64,000 nucleotides of DNA from an uncultured virus (IMG/VR IMGVR_UViG_3300027770_000035) (lineage: Duplodnaviria; Heunggongvirae; Uroviricota; Caudoviricetes). Shown here in pieces: positions 3,266 to 50,618 of the stretch. The DNA lies in the IMG/VR virus record IMGVR_UViG_3300027770_000035. One strand, 5' to 3'. Below the pieces are notes generated by a model. The model was given only the letters and a program-made list of their open reading frames with translations. It made no database searches and had not been told where the DNA came from. How positions within the stretch are numbered: the stretch's first letter is position 1; each line of letters starts with the position of its first letter. A program made the position numbers and the translations under genes.

Positions 3266-5405
3266 GCCTAAAGATTCAGCAGGAAGATACCCAGCGAAGG
3301 CTGCTCCCGTAGTTGTGGCTCCTTCTTCGGACACCGCAGATTCACTCAGGGTAGTAACTCAAGGACTGTCTGCACTACTTACTCAGATCAAGATAGACAG
3401 ACAGAATGCTCGACGACGAGTGTTGACTCCCGAAGAGAAAACTCTTCGGGGTGTGCGTGCTAAAGCAGCCATTCCTGGTCTTCAAACCGAAATCGGAGAC
3501 TTAAATAAGACTTTGGAGAAGTTCGCCACTGTAGAAAAATATAAAAAATATATAGAAGAACAGAAAGTCGAGGCCAAGAAAGAAAAGGATAAGACTAAGT
3601 ACCAGGATGCTGCTGAGAGTAAGTTTGAGAGTGGGGACTTCATTGGTGGAATGTTATTCAAATTCTTGGGTAGAAATGAACCCAAGAAGGGAGACCTAAA
3701 GAAAGAGGAAGAAGAGAAACAACTAATAGAAGAACGTCTGAAGTTACAAGATAAGCTCTACGGTCTCCAAGAACGTGAGGCTAAATTACAAAGGTTGGCA
3801 GGAGTGGCTGCGACTCCGACTCCGATTGCTCCTGAGGCTCCAGCCACAGCACCAGAAGCAGCAAATCCTGTTGTCCCTGCAACACCAGCAGCCACAGCAG
3901 AAGCCGCAGCGAAACCTCAGGTTCAGATCCAAGCAGAAGAAACTCGTGTTAATGCCGAGCAAATCCATACCGATACTCAGACACAAACCACCATCATTCA
4001 GAGAACTTCTGATAGTATCGATAAGTTATGGACAGAACCTATCAATGTCAATGCTACTGTTACTGACTTCTCTGATCCTGCTCTGAAGAAGTTGGTGACT
4101 AAGTTAAAGGATGAAGGTATTGGTACTGGTGGCGGTGGGGGATTAGGGGGACTATTGGGGGGTCCCGTGGGAACCGCAGGTAAAGTAGTATCTCAAGGGG
4201 CATCCAAAGGTGGAGGATCATTTCTTAGTAAGGTATCTAAAGTAGGAAAAACTGCACCTATTATTGGTGGAGTATTGACTGCTGGATTAGGATTGATGCA
4301 GGGTGAGAGTATAGCCAAGGCTGGTAGTAAAGGTGTAGGGACTACTGTGGGAAGTATCGCAGGAGCTGCATTGGGGGCTTCATTAGGTCCAGTCGGCATG
4401 TTTGTCGGGGGATTGATTGGAGGAATTCTGGGAGATGTATTGGGAGGATTATTCGGAGACTTCCTAGATAATCTAGGTAACATATTCACTATGAAGAAGC
4501 CGCCAGATGAACCACAGAAACCAGGGGTTCCGCAGGTTGGCCAGAAAAATAATGTAACCTTGGCTGAGTTAAATGAATCGGGGTTGAACATTAAACAGGG
4601 AGCTATGAAGGAAGGAGGTACCGTATCAGAAAATGTAAAAGCTGGTGCGAATCAGATTATGAAGTCCACACAGTTGGGAAGTACAAGTAAGCCTAACCAG
4701 ATAACTTCACTTAATGATGATTTTCACCAAGAATTCGAACACCCCAAGGGTAATGCTTTTGACTTTACAGTTATGGGTGATAAACCAAGTAGAAAGGAAG
4801 GTCAGGCCATTATCAAGCAGATTATGGCCAACGACCCGAATGTCAGCAATGTTATTGATGAATATAATAATCCATCCAAAAATTCTATTGGAGGGGGGCA
4901 TTTTCATGTTCAATACAAGTCTGATAACCCTAAGAAAGAATTTATTGCACCACCTGCTGCTCCAGCTAAGCCTTCGGTAACCTCTACTGCTCCCACTAAA
5001 CAGAACATGGAGGAACGACCCACAGGGATATCTCCAACTCCCAGTCCTGACTTAGAAGCCCTAAAGAATCTGAATGATATATCAAATGCTCAAGGTATTA
5101 TTAATGAGAATAAGAAATGGGATGATGCTATTGCTATGGCAGCAAGTCATTCTACATTTCCGGCTACTGCATCGGCCCCTTCCTTTGTACCGGATTCAGG
5201 ACCACAGGAATCAAAACAATTATATAGAAAATCTATACAGACTGATATAATTAAGGATCAGGCTCAGGCTAAACAGGTACAATCAGTAGTAGTAGTACAG
5301 GACAACTCTGTGAAGTCATCTACTACATCTTCAGAGAAGGAAGCCAGAGATCCCTTCCTTCCGATACCCAATTACTTTCAAGGATACTTCTCACTTAAAA
5401 TATAA
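3252..5405 (+). CDS. Tape-measure/baseplate-hub-like protein with glycine zipper and M15-like peptidase domain
   Basis: Coiled-coil N-terminus, Gly-rich hydrophobic segment, HPKGNAFDF...GGHFHVQ motif; follows gp26/gp51. Confidence 0.6.
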   Translation: MPKNKPKDSAGRYPAKAAPVVVAPSSDTADSLRVVTQGLSALLTQIKIDRQNARRRVLTPEEKTLRGVRAKAAIPGLQTEIGDLNKTLEKFATVEKYKKYIEEQKVEAKKEKDKTKYQDAAESKFESGDFIGGMLFKFLGRNEPKKGDLKKEEEEKQLIEERLKLQDKLYGLQEREAKLQRLAGVAATPTPIAPEAPATAPEAANPVVPATPAATAEAAAKPQVQIQAEETRVNAEQIHTDTQTQTTIIQRTSDSIDKLWTEPINVNATVTDFSDPALKKLVTKLKDEGIGTGGGGGLGGLLGGPVGTAGKVVSQGASKGGGSFLSKVSKVGKTAPIIGGVLTAGLGLMQGESIAKAGSKGVGTTVGSIAGAALGASLGPVGMFVGGLIGGILGDVLGGLFGDFLDNLGNIFTMKKPPDEPQKPGVPQVGQKNNVTLAELNESGLNIKQGAMKEGGTVSENVKAGANQIMKSTQLGSTSKPNQITSLNDDFHQEFEHPKGNAFDFTVMGDKPSRKEGQAIIKQIMANDPNVSNVIDEYNNPSKNSIGGGHFHVQYKSDNPKKEFIAPPAAPAKPSVTSTAPTKQNMEERPTGISPTPSPDLEALKNLNDISNAQGIINENKKWDDAIAMAASHSTFPATASAPSFVPDSGPQESKQLYRKSIQTDIIKDQAQAKQVQSVVVVQDNSVKSSTTSSEKEARDPFLPIPNYFQGYFSLKI

Positions 5406-26760: not shown

Positions 26761-26857
26761 GCATTACCTGATTAAAAAATCTTAATCATTGTAACCCTTT
26801 ACTTTCATTCCAAAACGAGGTATACTAAATGAGTAGTCGGAAAAAGGAAAAGTTGAT

Positions 26858-27092
26858 TATGAATTTTGGTCTAACCGTAGAACAACTCTTAGAAGATATC
26901 GAAGGTATTGTCAATAGACATCGGATGAACTACATCGATGCCATCGTCTTCTACTGTGATAAGAACAAGTTCGACATTGAGTCTTTGGCTACATTGATTC
27001 CCTCCTCTCTGCGTTCTAAGGTCGAAGAGTCTGCTCGTCAAACTCGGATGCTGAAGAAACAGTACTACAAGATCTCTACTCTTCCCATCTAG
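26858..27092 (+). CDS. gp33: Late transcription co-activator gp33
   Basis: IE.IV....NYIDAIVFYC....DIES...L...LRSKVE..A; alternative start 26829. Confidence 0.85.
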
Positions 27093-27095
27093 TAT

Positions 27096-27257
27096 ATGAC
27101 AAAGAAATCACGATATAACAGAGTGGTGTGGTCTGGGTCTAGGTCTTGGTCTTGGTCTTGGTCTTGTTCTAGGTCTGGGTCTTGGTCTGGATCTGGGTCT
27201 TGGCCTTGGTCTTGGTCTGGGTCTGGGTCTAGGTCTAGGTCTAGGTCTGGTATATAA
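27096..27257 (+). CDS. MTKKSRY-(Ser-X)n peptide, copy A (53 aa)
   Basis: MTKKSRYNRVVWSGSRSWSWSW...SRSRSRSGI*; fills the gp33-gp59 gap with 3-nt spacers. Confidence 0.7.
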   Translation: MTKKSRYNRVVWSGSRSWSWSWSCSRSGSWSGSGSWPWSWSGSGSRSRSRSGI

Positions 27258-27260
27258 TAT

Positions 27261-27887
27261 ATGCCCACACAGGAACGAGCCTACCAGTATTACAAATACT
27301 ATGTGGAGATGAAACTTCATTTCAACTCCCAGTCCTTTGACTTCTTCCGAGGCCACGGCACCCGATCATCTCCCAAGGCTTTCGTCGTAAGAAAAGATCG
27401 ATACTTCTTTGAGAAGATGGCATCGGTATTCAATGTTGAGAAGTATCTTGATAAATTGTTGATTGCTGCCAAAGAGAAGAAGAACTTCTACATCCGAGAT
27501 GTTATGACTCCGGATAACGAGAAGAAGTATCTGAAGACCAAAGGTTATATGGAAGCCTTTGATCGTGTGTTTGAGAAAGAGGTGTCTGATGTCGTAACAT
27601 ACTGTATCAAGAATAATGTGACGAAGAAGACCTTGTTGGAAGGTGATGATGAAGACAAACCCATTATCTATAATCTTCTCAGACAGAATGTGGTCAGCTA
27701 CGAAACCTTCATCTGTCTGGATAAGTTGTATGATGTGACTGACAGATTGGCGAAATTTTCTTTGGATCCTTTGGTAAATGAAACCACATTTTTCATAGAG
27801 AAATACAAACCCTTCTTCTCAAAGCACATTCCAAAGCGAGATCGTCTTAAAAGTATTATCAGTAATACGCTTGACTTGATGAACTAA
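27261..27887 (+). CDS. gp59: Helicase loader gp59
   Basis: Y..MKLHF...FDFF, F..RKDRYFFEK; between gp33 and gp32. Confidence 0.85.
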   Translation: MPTQERAYQYYKYYVEMKLHFNSQSFDFFRGHGTRSSPKAFVVRKDRYFFEKMASVFNVEKYLDKLLIAAKEKKNFYIRDVMTPDNEKKYLKTKGYMEAFDRVFEKEVSDVVTYCIKNNVTKKTLLEGDDEDKPIIYNLLRQNVVSYETFICLDKLYDVTDRLAKFSLDPLVNETTFFIEKYKPFFSKHIPKRDRLKSIISNTLDLMN

Positions 27888-42862: not shown

Positions 42863-45800
42863 TTATTTAGGATTAGGATCGTAGTGCCTTTTCAATTCTT
42901 GTACAACTGATATTAATTTTTCCATAGTTTTCCCAGAATCAAATTCTTCAATTTCAGAATCAGGAGAAAATAAGTACCATCCAGTAACTCCGATTGGTTG
43001 ACTGGTATTCTGCCGCATACGCCGATAATACACTCTGAGAGTCCACCCCGACATTTTATAGACTTTCCCAGAATTTGAATACACATATCGGACCATTCCG
43101 GGCCGACCTGGAATAATCTCTTCCTTTTTGTATTCGAACCCAAGAGTCTGACTAAGAAACGATGCCAATTCAGATTTTGTTTTAGAAGTTTCTGGTGTTG
43201 GTTGTTTCTTATTTGTGTCTTCTGGAGGAGACCATTTAGTCTTTGTTATTTTTTCATAATTTGCTCTGGCCAAATCACCTTCAGGATCCTGCTGCATACC
43301 CATTCGTCTCATTGCAGCAATACCTTCAGGAGAAACTTCATTCAGAGATTCTTCTTTAACTGTAGACTTACCAGTACTACTTAGAGATTTTTCGGCCCAC
43401 AACTTACCCGCATCCCCACCCAACATCATCCAAGCAATGAATCCATTGGAAGGTGCTTCGGGATCATCCCAGCCAGTCTTCTTTTCTTTGTCATGACGGG
43501 TGAGTTTAACAAGAAGATTTTTGAGATCGGATTCGTCGAAAGGTTCTTTGAGTAATTTATTGGCAGTCTTAATTGTATCACTATTACCGCCACGATTAAA
43601 CTTAGATCTTAGTTCCAATCCATCAGTCGCATTGTCTTTAACTTCTTTGGGGGCAGTTACTTCTAACAATACTTCCTGATCTCCCTTGGGGTCTACTTGC
43701 AATTCGTCCTGTTCTTCAGAGAATTGTTTGAATGTTTTGATATTATTTTCGCCCATATGTTTGAAGTATGATACCTGTCTCTCTCGTTTGATTGCTTGTT
43801 CTTTGGAAGGATAGGGACCGCCCAATCGCTTGTGGGTCTTCTTGGAGAATAGAGTCCAACCATTCTTGGAGTGTACTATGTCTTCATTCATTCTGAGAAC
43901 GTTACGCACTTTAGTAGTGAATGTGTCGGGGTCATCTTCTTCTATATGCCGTTTTTTGGCATAGGCTGGGGGCGTAGAGGGTAACCATTCAAAATTGAAT
44001 GGACTACAGTTCAGATGACTATTTACTATTGATGTTATCTTAGATGACACTTTGGAAAAATTAACTTTGTCGATATTAAATGTTTCAAAGTGCATCGAGT
44101 TATCATCAAGTTCTATGAAAAATCTAACCCATCCATCTTTCATACCGTTCTCAGCACTTATAATCTTACCATCAGTTACATTTTTGATGAGGTGATCATG
44201 AACTCCTTCATTTTTCTTGGGGTCTGGTAAAAATAATTCACCCACAGGAGATATCCAACCCCAATAGGGATATTTGAACTCATGAGCTTCATTCATCTCA
44301 GAGACACCTCTGTATTTGTTTCTTAATTTCTTTAAGAACTCGTCTGGATCGGCAACCTCAATGGCATTGAGTGGGCGCCTTAGGTCAATACTGTTCTCGA
44401 AGTTATAACTCTTAAATATAGGTCTTTTAGTTACCTTATGAGCACGATCCAAGACTTGTTTTATTGCCGTAGAAATCGTTGGAGACAACTTAAACCCTCG
44501 TGAATACACGCTGAAAAACATCTCATAATATTGAGTTAAGAAGAAACGAACCCAACCTCGGTTGAAAGCCTTCTGTTCGGCGTCGTATGAGTCAGTATGA
44601 TCAAAATTATCGGTGGCGTCGTTTGGATTAGAAATATCAATTAAAATATCTCTGACATACTCTGCATGGAGTGTGTGGGTAGATTTGGGTTTATCGTATA
44701 TCTTACCATCAGCATCGATCCATCCCCAATAGATATATTTGAACTCATGAGCTTCATCAACCTGTTCTGATCTTACTTTCTTTGCCAGATCACTAGTCGC
44801 AGGTGTTATTGCCTTGGACAAGGCACCTCCTTTGGCTGTGGCAATAATCCCCATAGTGTTACCCCTTCCATATAGCGATACAACTTTACCGTTGACTTTA
44901 GCAGCCAAATTACCATCTGGTCCCATAACAACCGGATACACTTTCACATTACCCCGCTCATTACTGAAATCATTAGATGCATACATTGATATTTCAGGAT
45001 CATTGAATAACTTCTTCCAGAGAATGCGTGCTCCAGCACTCTGAGATTGATAGGCTCCAAGATTATAGTTGGCTTTGGTGATGATATCTTTATATAGAGT
45101 GAATCCGATATTCTTACCTTGATAGCGGGTGCCAACTACCATATACTCCACTATCATAATTTCGAATGGACTATTAGCTATTTTTGGATTTTTTGGATTA
45201 AGATTCAATACGGCAACCAAATCCGCTCCATTATGCACAAATACCCCAGTGGGGTTGAGGTATTTTGGATCTGGATACAATCCAACCGAATATTGGATTC
45301 CATCCGCCGTAATATGCGGTACATTATCAATAAGGTTTTTATTTACAGCATTAAGGATCGTTTTGTGTATTGGCCCATCAAGCGCCTTAGCATCTGCCTT
45401 ATCAATATCATTGGGTTCTATCTCATCCAAGATATCTTCGTCTAATTTCATTGCCAATCTCAGATCATTATACAATCCCTTGGCATATTTCCTATCGGGA
45501 ATAGAATCACAGAATTCTTCGTAGTCGCCGTCCTTAGCGAGTTGGCGAACCTTGGTGGCAGAAATCCCATCGGTACCTTCGGAATCTTCTTCTCGATCCC
45601 CAGCCTGGACTATTTTGACAGACTCGAATGCCTTATTCTTCTCGTTGTATTCTCGAATGAGCTTCGTGAATGGTTCATATTCGTCCTCACCACAGACATA
45701 TACAAGATGGTCGTATCCCATATCCTTTATCTTATTCAGGACATCATAGATAGTTTCACATCCTTTATCCCCAATATGAACACCCTCAAAAAATTTCTTG

Positions 45801-45976
45801 GCATAGGATACCTTTGTATCATAGTCGAGAGGATTCTTTTCGGCATCCTGAGTGTGAGAAATGAATAGATAGTGGTCGCCGGGAATGGATGTAAGCTTAT
45901 TGACCAGCTTTAGGTGACCCTTGGTGGGTGGATTAAATCTTCCGAATGCGGCGACTGCGGTATCTGATTTGGGCAT
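42863..45976 (-). CDS. Cytidyltransferase-like domain fused to GNAT-like and other modules
   Basis: FGRFNPPTKGH and SATKVR; V...YQGKNIG..LY, QSAGA..LW; duplicated AHEFKY.YWGWI module. Confidence 0.75.
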   Translation of the reverse strand: MPKSDTAVAAFGRFNPPTKGHLKLVNKLTSIPGDHYLFISHTQDAEKNPLDYDTKVSYAKKFFEGVHIGDKGCETIYDVLNKIKDMGYDHLVYVCGEDEYEPFTKLIREYNEKNKAFESVKIVQAGDREEDSEGTDGISATKVRQLAKDGDYEEFCDSIPDRKYAKGLYNDLRLAMKLDEDILDEIEPNDIDKADAKALDGPIHKTILNAVNKNLIDNVPHITADGIQYSVGLYPDPKYLNPTGVFVHNGADLVAVLNLNPKNPKIANSPFEIMIVEYMVVGTRYQGKNIGFTLYKDIITKANYNLGAYQSQSAGARILWKKLFNDPEISMYASNDFSNERGNVKVYPVVMGPDGNLAAKVNGKVVSLYGRGNTMGIIATAKGGALSKAITPATSDLAKKVRSEQVDEAHEFKYIYWGWIDADGKIYDKPKSTHTLHAEYVRDILIDISNPNDATDNFDHTDSYDAEQKAFNRGWVRFFLTQYYEMFFSVYSRGFKLSPTISTAIKQVLDRAHKVTKRPIFKSYNFENSIDLRRPLNAIEVADPDEFLKKLRNKYRGVSEMNEAHEFKYPYWGWISPVGELFLPDPKKNEGVHDHLIKNVTDGKIISAENGMKDGWVRFFIELDDNSMHFETFNIDKVNFSKVSSKITSIVNSHLNCSPFNFEWLPSTPPAYAKKRHIEEDDPDTFTTKVRNVLRMNEDIVHSKNGWTLFSKKTHKRLGGPYPSKEQAIKRERQVSYFKHMGENNIKTFKQFSEEQDELQVDPKGDQEVLLEVTAPKEVKDNATDGLELRSKFNRGGNSDTIKTANKLLKEPFDESDLKNLLVKLTRHDKEKKTGWDDPEAPSNGFIAWMMLGGDAGKLWAEKSLSSTGKSTVKEESLNEVSPEGIAAMRRMGMQQDPEGDLARANYEKITKTKWSPPEDTNKKQPTPETSKTKSELASFLSQTLGFEYKKEEIIPGRPGMVRYVYSNSGKVYKMSGWTLRVYYRRMRQNTSQPIGVTGWYLFSPDSEIEEFDSGKTMEKLISVVQELKRHYDPNPK

Positions 45977-47975: not shown

Positions 47976-48050
47976 TGGCACTGCCGTCAAGACTCGAACT
48001 TGAAATATCTGAGTCAAAGTCAGATGTGTTACCAATTACACCACGGCAGT
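47976..48050 (-). tRNA. tRNA-Gln(TTG)
   Basis: Cloverleaf; TCTGA-CTTTGAC-TCAGA; CCA encoded. Confidence 0.93.
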
Positions 48051-48054
48051 AACT

Positions 48055-48129
48055 TGGCTCCCAGACCAGGACTCGAACCTGGAACCATCCGGTTAACAGC
48101 CGAATGCTCTACCATTGAGCTATCTGGGA
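48055..48129 (-). tRNA. tRNA-Asn(GTT)
   Basis: Cloverleaf; CTGTTAA loop; CCA encoded. Confidence 0.95.
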
Positions 48130-48135
48130 ATATTG

Positions 48136-48211
48136 TGGAGCCTCGTGCCGGGATTGAACCAGCGACATCCAGTTTACAAAACTGGCGCTCTACCAACTGA
48201 GCTAACAAGGC
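48136..48211 (-). tRNA. tRNA-Thr(TGT)
   Basis: Cloverleaf; CCAGT-TTTGTAA-ACTGG; CCA encoded. Confidence 0.95.
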
Positions 48212-48212
48212 T

Positions 48213-48289
48213 TGGTGATCTGTGAGAGATTCGAACTCCCGACCCTAGAGGTAGAAGCTCCATGCTCTATCCAACTGAGCTAACAGACC
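48213..48289 (-). tRNA. tRNA-Arg(TCT)
   Basis: Cloverleaf; CTTCTAC loop; CCA encoded; TATAAATA at 48295-48302. Confidence 0.95.
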
Positions 48290-48302: not shown

Positions 48303-48644
48303 TTAGTCAACGATATTCAATCCAATCTGTCTGAGACAACTCTCGATCTCTTTAGTCAACGTTCCTTCTGCGACAAAGCCTCCACTAACACACATGCCAG
48401 AACAATACCAATCCATGTAGTCCTCGTTCAGTATGCCGACCAGACTTCGAATCTCGGCAACAATTCCACCAGAAGATCTCCAGGAATATGAAGCGACGAC
48501 ATCAATATCATCTACTGTATATTCCATATTGCAGAAGGCAGCATAGAAATTCTGAGCAAATGAATCATCGATGAACCTCCCAAGGAATGAGGAAGACTTC
48601 ACTCTGTCAATCAGATCAGTATCATCGAAATATTTCTTTGTCAT
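48303..48644 (-). CDS. Conserved phage hypothetical protein
   Basis: AQNFYAAFCN, SWRSSGGIVA, DYMDWYCSG. Confidence 0.7.
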   Translation of the reverse strand: MTKKYFDDTDLIDRVKSSSFLGRFIDDSFAQNFYAAFCNMEYTVDDIDVVASYSWRSSGGIVAEIRSLVGILNEDYMDWYCSGMCVSGGFVAEGTLTKEIESCLRQIGLNIVD

Positions 48645-49039
48645 AGTGTCTCGTATCCATTATCTACTGTGTAGTATACATTCTTGATTTCAAATTCCGC
48701 AATGGCTCGTTGACAACCATCACAAGGTTTTGAGATTCCCCATACACCTTTATTCTTCACCCTGCAAATATAAAGTGACGACTTCTTTAGTTGCCAGAGA
48801 TCCAGCTGTCTCAGAGCATTCTTGATGGTTGCTATCTCGGCGTGAAGAAATATTCTGTGTTCAGTGTCAGCATACTTCTTCTGAAATGGTGAAGACTTAT
48901 AGGATGAAGTTCCGTATGCCACAATCCTATTCTTATATTCCAATGCAGCTGCCAGTTTGTAATTGGCGACCTTTGGAGTGAGAGCAGCAATCTCGGAAAG
49001 ATCCTGAAGTATTCTCAGGATCTTCTGTTCACTTTGCAT
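48641..49039 (-). CDS. Zinc-dependent cytidine/dCMP deaminase-like protein
   Basis: HAE and SKPCDGC motifs; start at MQSEQ. Confidence 0.85.
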   Translation of the reverse strand: MQSEQKILRILQDLSEIAALTPKVANYKLAAALEYKNRIVAYGTSSYKSSPFQKKYADTEHRIFLHAEIATIKNALRQLDLWQLKKSSLYICRVKNKGVWGISKPCDGCQRAIAEFEIKNVYYTVDNGYETL

Positions 49040-49205
49040 AAGACCAAGACCCAGCCCCAGATGCTTGGCCAAACCCATCATAAGACCAAGACCTAGACCA
49101 AGACCAATTATCAGACCCAGACCCAGACTTAGACCTAGACCTAGACCCAGATAGCCTAGCAGACCTAGACCCCACAATTCGTTTGTATCTTGATTTCTTT
49201 GTCAT
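49029..49205 (-). CDS. MTKKSRY-(Ser-X)n peptide, copy D (58 aa, degenerate)
   Basis: MTKKSRYKRIVGSRSARLSGSRSRSKSGSGSDNWSWSRSWSY... Confidence 0.65.
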   Translation of the reverse strand: MTKKSRYKRIVGSRSARLSGSRSRSKSGSGSDNWSWSRSWSYDGFGQASGAGSWSYAK

Positions 49206-49208
49206 ATA

Positions 49209-49352
49209 TTAAGACCCAGACCCAGACCCAGACCAAGACCCAGACCCAGACCTAGACCCAGACCCAGACCAAGACCCAGACCAAGACCCAGACCAAGACC
49301 CAGACCCAGACCAAGACCCCACAATTCGTTTGTATCTTGATTTCTTTGTCAT
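49209..49352 (-). CDS. MTKKSRY-(Ser-X)n peptide, copy C (47 aa)
   Basis: MTKKSRYKRIVGSWSGSGSW...SGSGS*. Confidence 0.7.
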   Translation of the reverse strand: MTKKSRYKRIVGSWSGSGSWSGSWSGSWSGSGSRSGSGSWSGSGSGS

Positions 49353-49355
49353 ATA

Positions 49356-49553
49356 TTATTTACCAGACCCATACCCAGACCTAGACCAAGACCCAGACCC
49401 AGACCTAGACCTAGACCTAGACCAAGACCAAGACCCAGACCAAGACCCAGACCTAGACCCAGACCTATACCTAGACCAAGACCTAGACCTAGACCCAGAC
49501 CCAGACCAAGACCCAGACCACATAATTCGTTTGTATCTTGATTTCTTTGTCAT
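49356..49553 (-). CDS. MTKKSRY-(Ser-X)n peptide, copy B (65 aa)
   Basis: MTKKSRYKRIMWSGSWSGSGSRSRSW...GYGSGK*. Confidence 0.7.
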   Translation of the reverse strand: MTKKSRYKRIMWSGSWSGSGSRSRSWSRYRSGSRSGSWSGSWSWSRSRSRSGSGSWSRSGYGSGK

Positions 49554-49654
49554 ATCGATATTGGTGTCAGATCCCCAATTCACGATTCGTTAACTAGACT
49601 TTTGTACATCATCTAGAGGGTGTCTGAACTTACCTGTGAACGACCAATCAGTTC

Positions 49655-49909
49655 CTACTTACCCGGACCGAAGCTTTCGATGGACTGAGTCGTGACAAAC
49701 CAGGTACCAGTAGGCAGAGTCTGAGCATCCTTATACCCAGCTTCGGTGAATGCACCAGTCTCATATACAATCTGAGCATCGGCCAGCTTGACATGAGATT
49801 TAGTGACCTCGGAGACCGTACCAGCATAGATGTAATTCGAGCAGAACAACATCACACTCTTACCCTGGAAAGAATCAAGACCTTCAACAACGTTATTGAG
49901 ATTTTTCAT
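49655..49909 (-). CDS. Small beta-barrel protein, Sm/LSm-like pattern
   Basis: L.SFQGKSV.L....YIY.GTV..V...HVKL.DA.IV ... WFV....IESF resembles Sm1/Sm2 strands; AAGGA SD. Confidence 0.55.
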   Translation of the reverse strand: MKNLNNVVEGLDSFQGKSVMLFCSNYIYAGTVSEVTKSHVKLADAQIVYETGAFTEAGYKDAQTLPTGTWFVTTQSIESFGPGK

Positions 49910-49961
49910 AATTTATTTTCCTTTTCCTTTTTACTCCTCTTTTATTATACTACGGAGTCAA

Positions 49962-50099
49962 CTACCAATTTATGAAACTTAAACGTATGCAATCATCATA
50001 GTCGTGACGATAGTCATCCGCTTCATTTTGATTGTACTGTTCGAAGTCATCCGGTTCGTAGAACTCTTCAGCAGAGACATCATCAAAGTCATCGTTCAT
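49962..50099 (-). CDS. Highly acidic 45-aa peptide
   Basis: MNDDFDDVSAEEFYEPDDFEQY...; TTGACA-17-TATACT-6-ATG promoter. Confidence 0.65.
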   Translation of the reverse strand: MNDDFDDVSAEEFYEPDDFEQYNQNEADDYRHDYDDCIRLSFINW

Positions 50100-50105
50100 A
50101 TTCAA

Positions 50106-50186
50106 AGTATACCGCATCCCTCGGAGGATGTCAAGAGGAATCTGAAAATAGTTTCTCTTGACAATCGAAGATCGACGCCCTATACT
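50106..50186. promoter_or_regulatory. Divergent sigma70-type promoter pair (both leaderless)
   Basis: TTGACA-17-TATACT on each strand (50106-50134 minus; 50158-50186 plus). Confidence 0.85.
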
Positions 50187-50192
50187 ATAGGT

Positions 50193-50618
50193 ATGAATAA
50201 GAAATTCTCACCTGAACTCCACGATGAGTTCGATGTATTTGGTCGGGAGATCGTGAAGAAGTTCTTGGCCAAGACAATGAAGCTGGAAGCCAGAGACAAT
50301 CCGGACCAGTATGGTATTGATCTGGTCCTATATAAGAATGATACAATCGTAGGATATGCCGAGGTTGAGGTTCGGACCAACTGGAATGCTCTGAACTTTC
50401 CTTTTGATGAACTGAATGTTCCACTGAGGAAAGGTAAGCTGTTCAACAACGATCTTCCTTCGCTGTTCTTCTCGGTGAACCAGCCGGGCACGGCATTGAT
50501 GTACTGTTCGTCTAATCTTGTGATGAGATCTCGGATCGAGAATTCTCCCAACAAGTATATGAGAGAAGAAATGTTCTTCAAGGTTCCAGTAGAGAAAATG
50601 AAGTTTGTGGTACTATAG
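50193..50618 (+). CDS. Putative PD-(D/E)XK-fold protein
   Basis: NPDQYGIDL...AEVEVR..W; start set by promoter. Confidence 0.55.
   Translation: MNKKFSPELHDEFDVFGREIVKKFLAKTMKLEARDNPDQYGIDLVLYKNDTIVGYAEVEVRTNWNALNFPFDELNVPLRKGKLFNNDLPSLFFSVNQPGTALMYCSSNLVMRSRIENSPNKYMREEMFFKVPVEKMKFVVL

Follow-up and report, generated by a model that had tools for sequence, protein, structure and literature searches.

What does a phage do with a row of very short genes in which almost every second residue is serine, and do such genes belong with the small gene that precedes them? The question is raised by a 64,000-nucleotide (nt) stretch of DNA from an uncultured virus of the Caudoviricetes (IMG/VR record IMGVR_UViG_3300027770_000035), referred to here as the window. 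A preliminary description of its sequence had proposed a candidate new system of an acidic peptide, an Sm-like barrel, and an array of peptides sharing an identical start and a variable, serine-rich core. Our comparative analyses revealed a conserved two-part phage module, in which a gene for an acidic protein of Sm fold is followed by one or more genes for basic peptides that are modelled as disordered. In these peptides (Ser-X microproteins) Ser alternates with a residue X, which is usually Gly, Trp, or Arg.

In the window, the module lies on the minus strand. The gene for the Sm/LSm-fold protein (84 amino acids [aa]; 49655-49909) is followed by a 101-nt spacer (49554-49654) and by three Ser-X open reading frames (ORFs): gene 1 (49356-49553; 65 aa; net charge +15), with the leader MTKKSRYKRIMW and then (S-[GWR])n; gene 2 (49209-49352; 47 aa; net charge +6), which starts 3 nt past the gene 1 stop; and gene 3 (49029-49205; 58 aa; net charge +10), whose repeat is partly degenerate. 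The joints among the three are TAA-TAT-ATG, and the gene 3 stop overlaps the start of a cytidine/dCMP deaminase-family gene (48641-49039, minus strand; 132 aa; PF00383, E = 6.9e-9; phrog_174). The 30-nt start ATGACAAAGAAATCAAGATACAAACGAATT (encoding MTKKSRYKRI) occurred in exactly 3 copies in the window versus 0 in 100 shuffles, and the hexamer pattern GGTCTNGGTCTNGGTCT (at most 1 mismatch) in 64 copies versus 0 in shuffles. The arrays are written as GGTCTN hexamers, with Tandem Repeats Finder periods of 6 and 147. Forty-seven of the hexamer matches fall within the main locus, and the other 17 mark a second site (27130-27248, plus strand), absent from the preliminary description, where a fourth Ser-X gene was found (27096-27257, plus strand; 53 aa, with a net charge of +9 and (S-X)n after the leader MTKKSRYNRVVW). 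Across the four ORFs, all 77 of 77 body Ser codons are TCT, and the alternating codons are GGG (34), TGG (24), AGG (20), and others (21). Between a gp33-like gene (26829-27092; PF16805, late-transcription coactivator) and a gp59-like helicase loader gene (27261-27887), the fourth gene occupies the interval from the stop of the former to the ATG of the latter, just upstream of gp32 and downstream of UvsW; it is joined to its neighbors by stop-TAT-ATG upstream and by TAA-TAT-ATG downstream. Relative to the other three, its leader carries AGA>CGA, TAC>TAT, and CGA>AGA, all silent in the Ser-X frame, in addition to K>N and I>V; the silent differences are a first sign that this frame is read. The layout given in the preliminary description (promoter, 45-aa ORF, 84-aa gene, spacer of about 100 nt, and three ORFs joined by TAAtatATG, running on into a deaminase gene and a tRNA cluster) was found throughout at the coordinates reported here, and the identical 30-nt start and the alternation of Ser with Gly, Arg, or Trp were likewise confirmed.

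The association of the two parts extends well beyond the window. A scan of IMG/VR with an alignment of the Sm-like family (alignment A1) provided 80 loci, the best 80 of 93 confirmed relatives. A Ser-X ORF lay directly downstream of the Sm-like homologue in 69 of the 80 by script, and in 75 after the rest had been read by eye (the additions being L154, L163, L169, L191, L192, and L208, two of them cut by the contig end), in keeping with the expectation of the preliminary description that homologues would consistently be trailed by (SX)n ORFs. Among the remaining five loci, the contig of L167 ends 7 nt past the stop, L142 retains a 13-aa stump, L148 has no Ser-X ORF, and L160 and L162 have theirs upstream. 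A stop codon separates the Sm-like and Ser-X genes in the loci examined; the Ser-X start falls within -11 to +12 nt of that stop in 48/69 loci and forms a 4-nt ATGA/GTGA overlap with it in 24/69, the geometry of translational coupling. The Sm-like family itself is large: 27 homologues were retrieved by a word-indexed search, and an exhaustive profile search yielded 523 clusters (clustered at 50% identity) at E ≤ 1e-3, of which 352 were at E ≤ 1e-10. Identity among homologues reached down to 42%.

Searches that began from the peptides gave a reciprocal view. A leader-pattern scan of IMG/VR returned 7 loci, and a hexamer scan at least 124, of which 68 had short Ser-(G/W/R) frames, many of them in tandem. 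Of the 68 Ser-X-bearing loci among the matches listed, 30 had an Sm-like match in the flank, 27 of these in adjacent Sm-then-Ser-X order; 38 had no Sm-like match, and 19 of those 38 have less than 350 nt of upstream sequence, too little to tell. A blastn search of the locus against GenBank phages gave no match. A tblastn search of the same phages with three family members retrieved a single uncultured record (MW202825.1, our locus L212) and no cultured phage carrying the pair. At positions 4001-4616 of that record, annotation is missing for the Sm-like gene and for the first Ser-X gene, which overlaps it by ATGA and encodes 60 aa; a second Ser-X gene is listed as a “hypothetical protein.” A scan of GTDB genomes added 3 contigs from metagenome-assembled genomes and no cultured host.

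Are these arrays conserved as protein or as repeated DNA? The Ser-X frame and its start codon were intact in 61/61 unique genes; the set had been chosen for an open Ser-X frame, so the informative comparison is that with the other two frames. The +2 frame was free of stops in 27/61 genes, and the +1 frame had an in-frame ATG or GTG within 90 nt upstream in only 6/61. The dominant Ser codon differed among the 61 genes (TCT in 31, TCG in 18, AGC in 7, TCA in 2, AGT in 2, and TCC in 1), such that the hexamer reads NGGTCT, NGGTCG, NGGTCA, or NGGAGC depending on the lineage and the encoded Ser-X stays constant, while the product of the +1 frame shifts with codon type from Gly-Leu to Gly-Ala, Gly-Arg, or Gly-Gln/His. 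A diverged copy in L007 writes Ser as TCT, TCG, TCC, and AGT, changes that are silent in the Ser-X frame but replace the Leu of the Gly-Leu frame by Arg or Pro. As the Ser-X product is the only one held constant across codon types, the peptide appears to be the selected object, and a role as a DNA site is unlikely; the conservation of the S-X frame that the preliminary description had put up for checking was thus found across different Ser codon families. A function of the array as an AGACC-site restriction decoy, or in avoidance of GGTCTC (both of which resemble known restriction sites), was considered and dropped because other lineages use NGGTCG, NGGTCA, or NGGAGC. In array 3, the Gly-Leu frame runs open into that of the deaminase and gives a 178-aa ORF with a TTG start (48641-49177, minus strand). 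Some substitutions in the degenerate 3' part of that array preserve Gly-Leu (GGTTTG, GGGCTG), which we treat as chance. The Gly-Leu frame was likewise dropped as a coding frame, since its product varies with the Ser codon and the deaminase of relatives starts at the later ATG, although an N-terminally extended deaminase may still exist.

Peptide statistics were drawn from the 61 unique peptides encoded after the Sm-like gene at the 69 script-positive loci. Their median length is 65 aa (27-95) and their median net charge +10 (+5 to +19), with a body composed of 46.7% Ser, 18.5% Gly, 13.3% Trp, and 13.0% Arg; Gly, Trp, and Arg (38.5%, 28.0%, and 26.7%, respectively) account for 93% of the positions between serines. 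Leaders have a median of 11 residues and a median charge of +4, and in 46/61 a Lys/Arg cluster is followed by Tyr, Trp, or Phe (e.g., MRGLKQKYR, MIRGKKQKW, and MTKKSRYKR). The order of Gly, Trp, and Arg is near random (observed/expected 0.81-1.17), with the neighbors WW (0.81) and RR (0.87) slightly rare. Over 1493 hexamer units, position 1 was G in 597, T in 436, A in 304, and C in 156. At each of positions 2-6, only 4.7-8.0% of units differ from the consensus of their locus; this also holds for position 6, the wobble base of Ser, which is silent in TCN-type arrays. From these patterns, the arrays seem to have been homogenized by slippage while a mix of three or four unit types was kept. An AlphaFold2 model of the gene 1 peptide (alignment A2, 34 peptides) had a mean predicted local distance difference test score (pLDDT) of 50.2 and only a weak helix at residues 4-12, which fits disorder. 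Gly is written as GGG in 570/624 codons, placing a GGG every 6 or 12 nt on the coding strand, a spacing from which G-quadruplexes might arise in DNA or mRNA. A search of a 5.8-billion-protein collection with the peptide gave 2557 word-sharing candidates and none at E ≤ 0.001, for which low complexity is probably responsible.

The 84-aa protein was modelled with good support (AlphaFold2 pLDDT 88.5; predicted template modeling score 0.77) as a short helix (residues 11-14) and a strongly bent five-stranded antiparallel barrel, the arrangement of the Sm/LSm/Hfq superfamily, with strand segments at residues 18-23, 27-35, 39-50, 61-64, 69-73, and 77-82. The top Foldseek rows were almost all Sm/LSm-type barrels (E from 1.6e-3, probability 1.00), and a search independent of Foldseek (VIA-align) placed 30 PDB representatives at Z ≥ 8, nearly all of them Sm/LSm. 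The best structural match was archaeal AF-Sm2 (1ljo_A; Z 10.2, root mean square deviation [rmsd] 1.9 Å over 71 residues), and Hfq chains matched more weakly (Z 6.4-7.2) than archaeal or eukaryotic Sm proteins. Membership in Sm/LSm is therefore assigned at the level of the modelled fold. Of the Sm/LSm-like character first suggested for this protein, the fold has stood, and membership by sequence has not, no LSM/Hfq match being found. A profile search of PDB sequences with A1 retrieved no Sm chain, the ESM Atlas gave no usable match, and in PHROGs only the window protein among the 27 family members matched anything (phrog_12061, E = 0.0041, marginal). The family is acidic, with a median charge of -3 and a median isoelectric point (pI) of 5.0 (pI < 6 in 85% of 107 proteins; -2 and 5.1 for the window protein). 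Conserved in A1 are the motifs NYIYAG, VYETG, and IES together with D61 and Q63; the conserved residues are Y26, Y28, G30, T51, G52, D61, Q63, E78, and S79. Four residues (EESG or similar, after position 8) carried by most of the 26 aligned homologues are missing from the window protein. Some homologues (186-218 aa, including P0028, P0029, and P0061) contain a tandem double Sm-like domain, which offers only a hint toward a ring of five to eight subunits. All 13 longer homologues that were fetched had N-terminal extensions or a domain duplication, and none was fused to a Ser-X tail. P0058 (1010 aa) matches profile positions 57-78 thirteen times. A complex prediction with two Sm-like chains and peptide residues 1-40 scored 0.02 (mark 0.32), which gives no verdict on binding.

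No account of an Sm-like phage protein with a Ser-X repeat peptide as its partner came up in our full-text literature search. The eukaryotic Sm/LSm proteins SmD1, SmD3, SmB, and LSm4 have Arg-rich low-complexity tails, and the phage module resembles them in combining an Sm-fold core with a basic, repetitive, disordered dipeptide-repeat segment. In contrast to their fused Arg-Gly tails, the phage tail is a separate gene, often in multiple copies, and its repeat is Ser-X (Gly/Trp/Arg); the phage core is moreover acidic and without LSM sequence homology. SR-type RNA-binding proteins differ from the peptides, which have no RRM or other Pfam domain and in which Arg makes up only 26.7% of the alternating residues. 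Hfq also joins a small Sm barrel to a flexible tail that tunes nucleic-acid binding, as described in the available parts of PMC5606850, PMC7144919, and PMC13234807, but its tail is fused and acidic (the same part of PMC5606850), whereas the phage peptide is basic and separately encoded. Among T4-like phages, Tevenvirinae GoF and MotB.1, as well as Frd.2, are small early proteins of unknown wild-type function with a predicted five-stranded LSm-like barrel, joined by a flexible linker to a C-terminal domain (available part of PMC12152347). The 84-aa protein, in contrast, is a barrel only, and hhalign of A1 gave a probability of 0.49% against T4 GoF and 0.35% against MotB.1 (Frd.2 was not compared). 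In the same source, within the text covered by a term search (supplementary tables not included), no repeat-peptide partner is mentioned. An environmental, probably phage-borne Sm-like barrel structure matches our model (Z 6.8, rmsd 1.9, 59 residues), but at 5% identity; it was not retrieved by the A1 profile search of PDB sequences, and its helix is C-terminal (available part of PMC12152347) instead of N-terminal. At the level of the DNA, the arrays recall the tandem nucleotide repeats of Borgs, as far as the available part of PMC9879509 describes them, in being perfect, in-frame, and fast evolving, with a disorder-prone product. Borg repeats, however, occur within many unrelated genes (same source), whereas here the hexamer of NGG plus a Ser codon makes up entire genes of a family of its own, whose leader and partner gene are both conserved.

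Copy number and position of the Ser-X genes vary among close relatives. The nearest relative (L003/L132), with a 100% identical Sm-like protein, has one Ser-X gene before the deaminase versus three in the window, and L133 has the order Sm-like, Ser-X, deaminase, Ser-X, Ser-X. Gene 2 is missing from the one-copy allele, which is represented by L003/L132 and by RNA-library contigs of runs X16 and X18; in the latter, 49175 is joined to 49524, skipping 348 nt, and 12 nt (two hexamers) are inserted at 49082. One-copy and three-copy alleles coexist in lake samples. Between gp45 and gp44, L007 has three Ser-X genes and L004 has one plus a remnant (MTKKSRYNSIQ followed by two stops) within almost identical flanks, and tandem sets reach about 14 copies in L009. 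At the gp33/gp59 junction, a Ser-X gene (53, 62, or 78 aa) was present in 5/5 informative relatives whose gp59-like protein was at least 95% identical, and the junction was empty (...ISTLPI, stop, two bases, ATG) in five relatives at 51% identity; overall, the insertion was found in 5/76 informative loci, with 0/66 in loci outside both of these groups. Insertion precisely between a stop and the next start indicates that the Ser-X gene behaves as a cassette. Ser-X genes thus also stand apart from the Sm-like gene, in the window at 27096 and in relatives between gp45 and gp44, and the notion of one fixed locus had to be given up.

No recurring third partner emerged. Of 112 downstream neighbor proteins, most are without a Pfam family. 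Those that could be recognized belong mostly to DNA metabolism (single-stranded DNA-binding protein [SSB] at 4 loci, PD-(D/E)XK/DUF2800, YqaJ, AAA_24, SNF2, VRR-NUC, and deaminase), and the deaminase is a neighbor in the window lineage only, the same gene being present in L133. Upstream ORFs are heterogeneous, with ERF-like, RecT-like, and SSB-like ones among them as judged by eye from the sequences and not by family search. The very acidic 45-aa ORF upstream of the Sm-like gene (49962-50099, minus strand; start MNDDFDDVSAEEFYEPDDFEQ, MNDDFDD...), which had been counted as a component of the system, fared worse: tblastn over all retrieved loci found relatives on two close-relative contigs only (L003/L132, 100%; L133, 91% over 33 aa). 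It was accordingly dropped as a third partner; by sequence it is lineage specific and lies outside the conserved module. In L132 (2036-2442), about 400 nt with a 119-aa ORF (MANTKLSSIEK...) are inserted between the acidic ORF and the Sm-like gene, an insertion lacking in the window, and a 160-aa homologue of that ORF precedes the Sm-like gene in L143/L144. The spacer length of 101 nt is common to the window, L132, and L133, in comparison with -11 to +12 nt at most other loci. Its predicted RNA fold was not unusual (z +0.9), and Rfam applied to the window returned four tRNAs and sub-threshold noise only, with no match to the spacer or arrays.

The module sits within a window of T4-like character (minus-strand portal, prohead protease, scaffold, and major capsid genes; PF07230, PF03420, PF25623, and PF07068), which was annotated with Pfam, PHROGs, Rfam/tRNA scans, Tandem Repeats Finder, and shuffled-sequence controls. 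The acidic ORF is preceded by a sigma-70-like, early-type promoter (TTGACA-17-TATACT; 50134-50106, minus strand; 11/12 matches), whose -10 hexamer is at 50111-50106. Its ATG (50099) lies about 7 nt past that hexamer, at or beside the predicted transcript start, and the transcript may be near-leaderless. A mirror-image twin with the same hexamers (50158-50186, plus strand; 11/12 matches) precedes a divergent 141-aa gene, such that the two stand back to back, 24 nt apart, the minus one facing the locus and the plus one the 141-aa gene. Promoter-like sites in the region numbered 9 versus 6.9 ± 2.6 in shuffles, a count that is not significant by itself. The stretch occurs in freshwater/lake metagenomes and in six runs recorded as RNA. 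Contigs of RNA run X2 are identical to the window over 49526-50088 and across the arrays and deaminase, with cover ending near 50088-50111, whereas DNA run X1 continues to 50250; the edge of X2 cover near the promoter is a weak hint of expression. X2 has no cover upstream of about 50111, and X16 and X18 have none over parts, and such holes in contig cover prove nothing. Flanked by the capsid gene and the locus, the divergent 141-aa gene (50193-50618, plus strand) weakly matches PF24579 (phage PD-(D/E)XK endonuclease; E = 0.0054, under the curated cutoff) and may be a mobile nuclease gene. On the other side, a 113-aa ORF separates the deaminase from four minus-strand tRNA genes (Arg-TCT, Thr-TGT, Asn-GTT, and Gln-TTG; 47976-48289). 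All 20 Arg codons of the repeat bodies are AGG, and the tRNA-Arg(TCT) gene (48213-48289), which reads AGA/AGG, lies about 750 nt downstream on the same strand; tRNAs of this type are common in T4-like phages, and the proximity may be coincidence. Farther along the same strand, a 1037-aa protein (42863-45976) combines an N-terminal cytidylyltransferase-like domain (PF01467; phrog_3041, E = 4e-47) with a long region without a family match, and its neighbors are a Lipoprotein_15-repeat protein and a GP88-like protein.

What, then, might the module do? The RNA-binding, condensate, cross-beta-fiber, and anti-defense roles raised in the preliminary description are speculative. The reading that we prefer, tentatively and as something short of probable, is that an Sm-like hub and basic disordered peptides together provide a nucleic-acid chaperone or condensing activity early in infection. 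The Sm-like protein would oligomerize into a ring, serving as a hub or chaperone that holds or doses the peptides, which perhaps dock on it through their conserved leader. Side chains of Arg and Trp, set at regular distances by the intervening Ser and Gly, would bind RNA or single-stranded DNA (ssDNA) through charge and stacking, and the complex would chaperone, anneal, or condense nucleic acid near replication and recombination genes, by analogy with the Arg-Gly tails of Sm proteins and the disordered tail of Hfq. Counted in favor are the modelled fold, the linkage of the two genes, the conserved coding frame, the predicted disorder of the peptides with their well-mixed Trp and Arg, the expression hint from RNA-run contigs, the opposite charges (median +10 for the peptides versus -3 for the Sm-like proteins) and the early/DNA-metabolism context, with gp33/gp59/gp32 beside the second copy and gp45/gp44 in relatives. 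Several points weigh on the other side. Peptide translation, the ring, binding of peptide to ring, and binding of nucleic acid are all presumed; an acidic Sm-like protein is unusual for a direct nucleic-acid binder, and none of the 27 family members matches Pfam LSM or Hfq at E ≤ 10, the window protein being without any Pfam family. No Shine-Dalgarno sequence is obvious for the first Ser-X ORF of the window, 101 nt past the Sm-like gene. Some Ser-X genes have no Sm-like gene close by (that at 27096 and, among the matches listed, those at 19 informative loci), which suggests that the peptides may act alone. The 80 loci include duplicate phage types, with the 69 script-positive ones giving 61 unique peptides, and the contigs from RNA runs show presence and not strand, level, or translation, as RNA libraries can contain DNA.

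Other explanations account for parts of the same evidence. The peptides could be a counter-defense set, variable decoys or inhibitors directed against a host defense or other factor, with the Sm-like protein solubilizing them or acting as the effector; variation in length, copy number, and Gly/Trp/Arg order would then mirror an arms race. The differing copy numbers of close relatives (one as opposed to three genes at a shared site, and one with a remnant as opposed to three at gp45/gp44), the roughly 14 tandem copies in L009, the early-region location, and the restriction of polymorphism to hexamer position 1 would fit, but replication slippage alone also predicts rapid change, the near-random G/W/R order points to composition, and not to a particular binding sequence, as what counts, and no known defense or anti-defense gene turned up repeatedly next to the pair (PADLOC was not among the libraries searched). 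We consider this possible but unlikely. A host shut-off or toxin-like pair, in which a basic Trp/Arg peptide harms the nucleoid, ribosome, or membrane and the acidic protein neutralizes or doses it, is improbable. Its gene order resembles that of type II toxin-antitoxin systems (a small acidic gene first and a basic one second, ATGA/GTGA overlap in 24/69, and opposite charges), and Trp/Arg-rich peptides are often membrane-active or nucleic-acid-binding. However, several tandem peptide genes per Sm-like gene and the distant gene at 27096 misfit a one-to-one antidote, the peptides have no hydrophobic segment, and half of their residues are Ser.

Quite improbable, in our estimate, is a selfish or near-neutral cassette, in which the Ser-X genes would spread and expand through slippage and recombination at junctions while doing the phage little good, and their link to the Sm-like gene would mark origin only. 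A landing site precisely at a stop/start junction, empty in relatives, the L004 remnant and L142 stump, and uniformity within arrays at synonymous sites, which points to slippage, are as such a cassette would predict; the retention of the pair down to 42% identity and across four or more Ser codon families argues instead for long-term selection on the protein, as does the intact frame and start in 61/61 genes when read against the +1 and +2 frames of that frame-selected set. That the hexamer array itself is functional as binding sites, restriction decoy, or G-rich structure, with the ORFs incidental, is very improbable and close to refuted: the likeness of AGACC and the avoided GGTCTC to restriction sites and the GGG every 6 nt (570/624 Gly codons) speak for it, but the hexamer varies by lineage while Ser-X is constant, Rfam gave no match, and every array has an in-frame start, a conserved basic leader, and a closing stop. 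Hardly credible at all is a set of precursors like those of ribosomally synthesized and post-translationally modified peptides, the logic once read into the constant leader and variable core, in which the leader would be bound by a modifying enzyme. One radical-SAM/B12 gene neighbors L189, but it is the only candidate modifying enzyme among the 112 downstream proteins, the upstream ones are heterogeneous, and none stands beside the window locus. Any weight beyond these readings we leave to mechanisms that we have not thought of.

A bolder form of the preferred chaperone reading, which we hold to be distinctly unlikely, would have the phage build its own condensate or nucleic-acid-chaperone system from the Sm-like ring and detachable tails of Ser-(Gly/Trp/Arg), tunable by base change and slippage. 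A single base change in the hexamer of NGG plus a Ser codon would switch a Gly spacer to an aromatic (Trp) or cationic (Arg) sticker, slippage would alter tail length and gene copy number, and extra tail genes would be seeded beside replication genes, such that a compartment of RNA or ssDNA could have its material properties retuned within a few generations. If the preferred reading is correct, the 523 clusters would represent an early phage function of a widespread class that has escaped notice so far, built on a viral Sm-type hub whose low-complexity tails are separate, multicopy, and fast-evolving microproteins. Gene finders and databases miss this whole family of small genes, as illustrated by the peptide search without a scoring relative and by the unannotated genes of MW202825.1. 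As natural variants, the disordered peptides also lend themselves to asking what difference the number and proportions of aromatic and Arg residues make to function, and in T4-like phages the family marks a new kind of cassette that enters the stop/start junctions between core replication genes.

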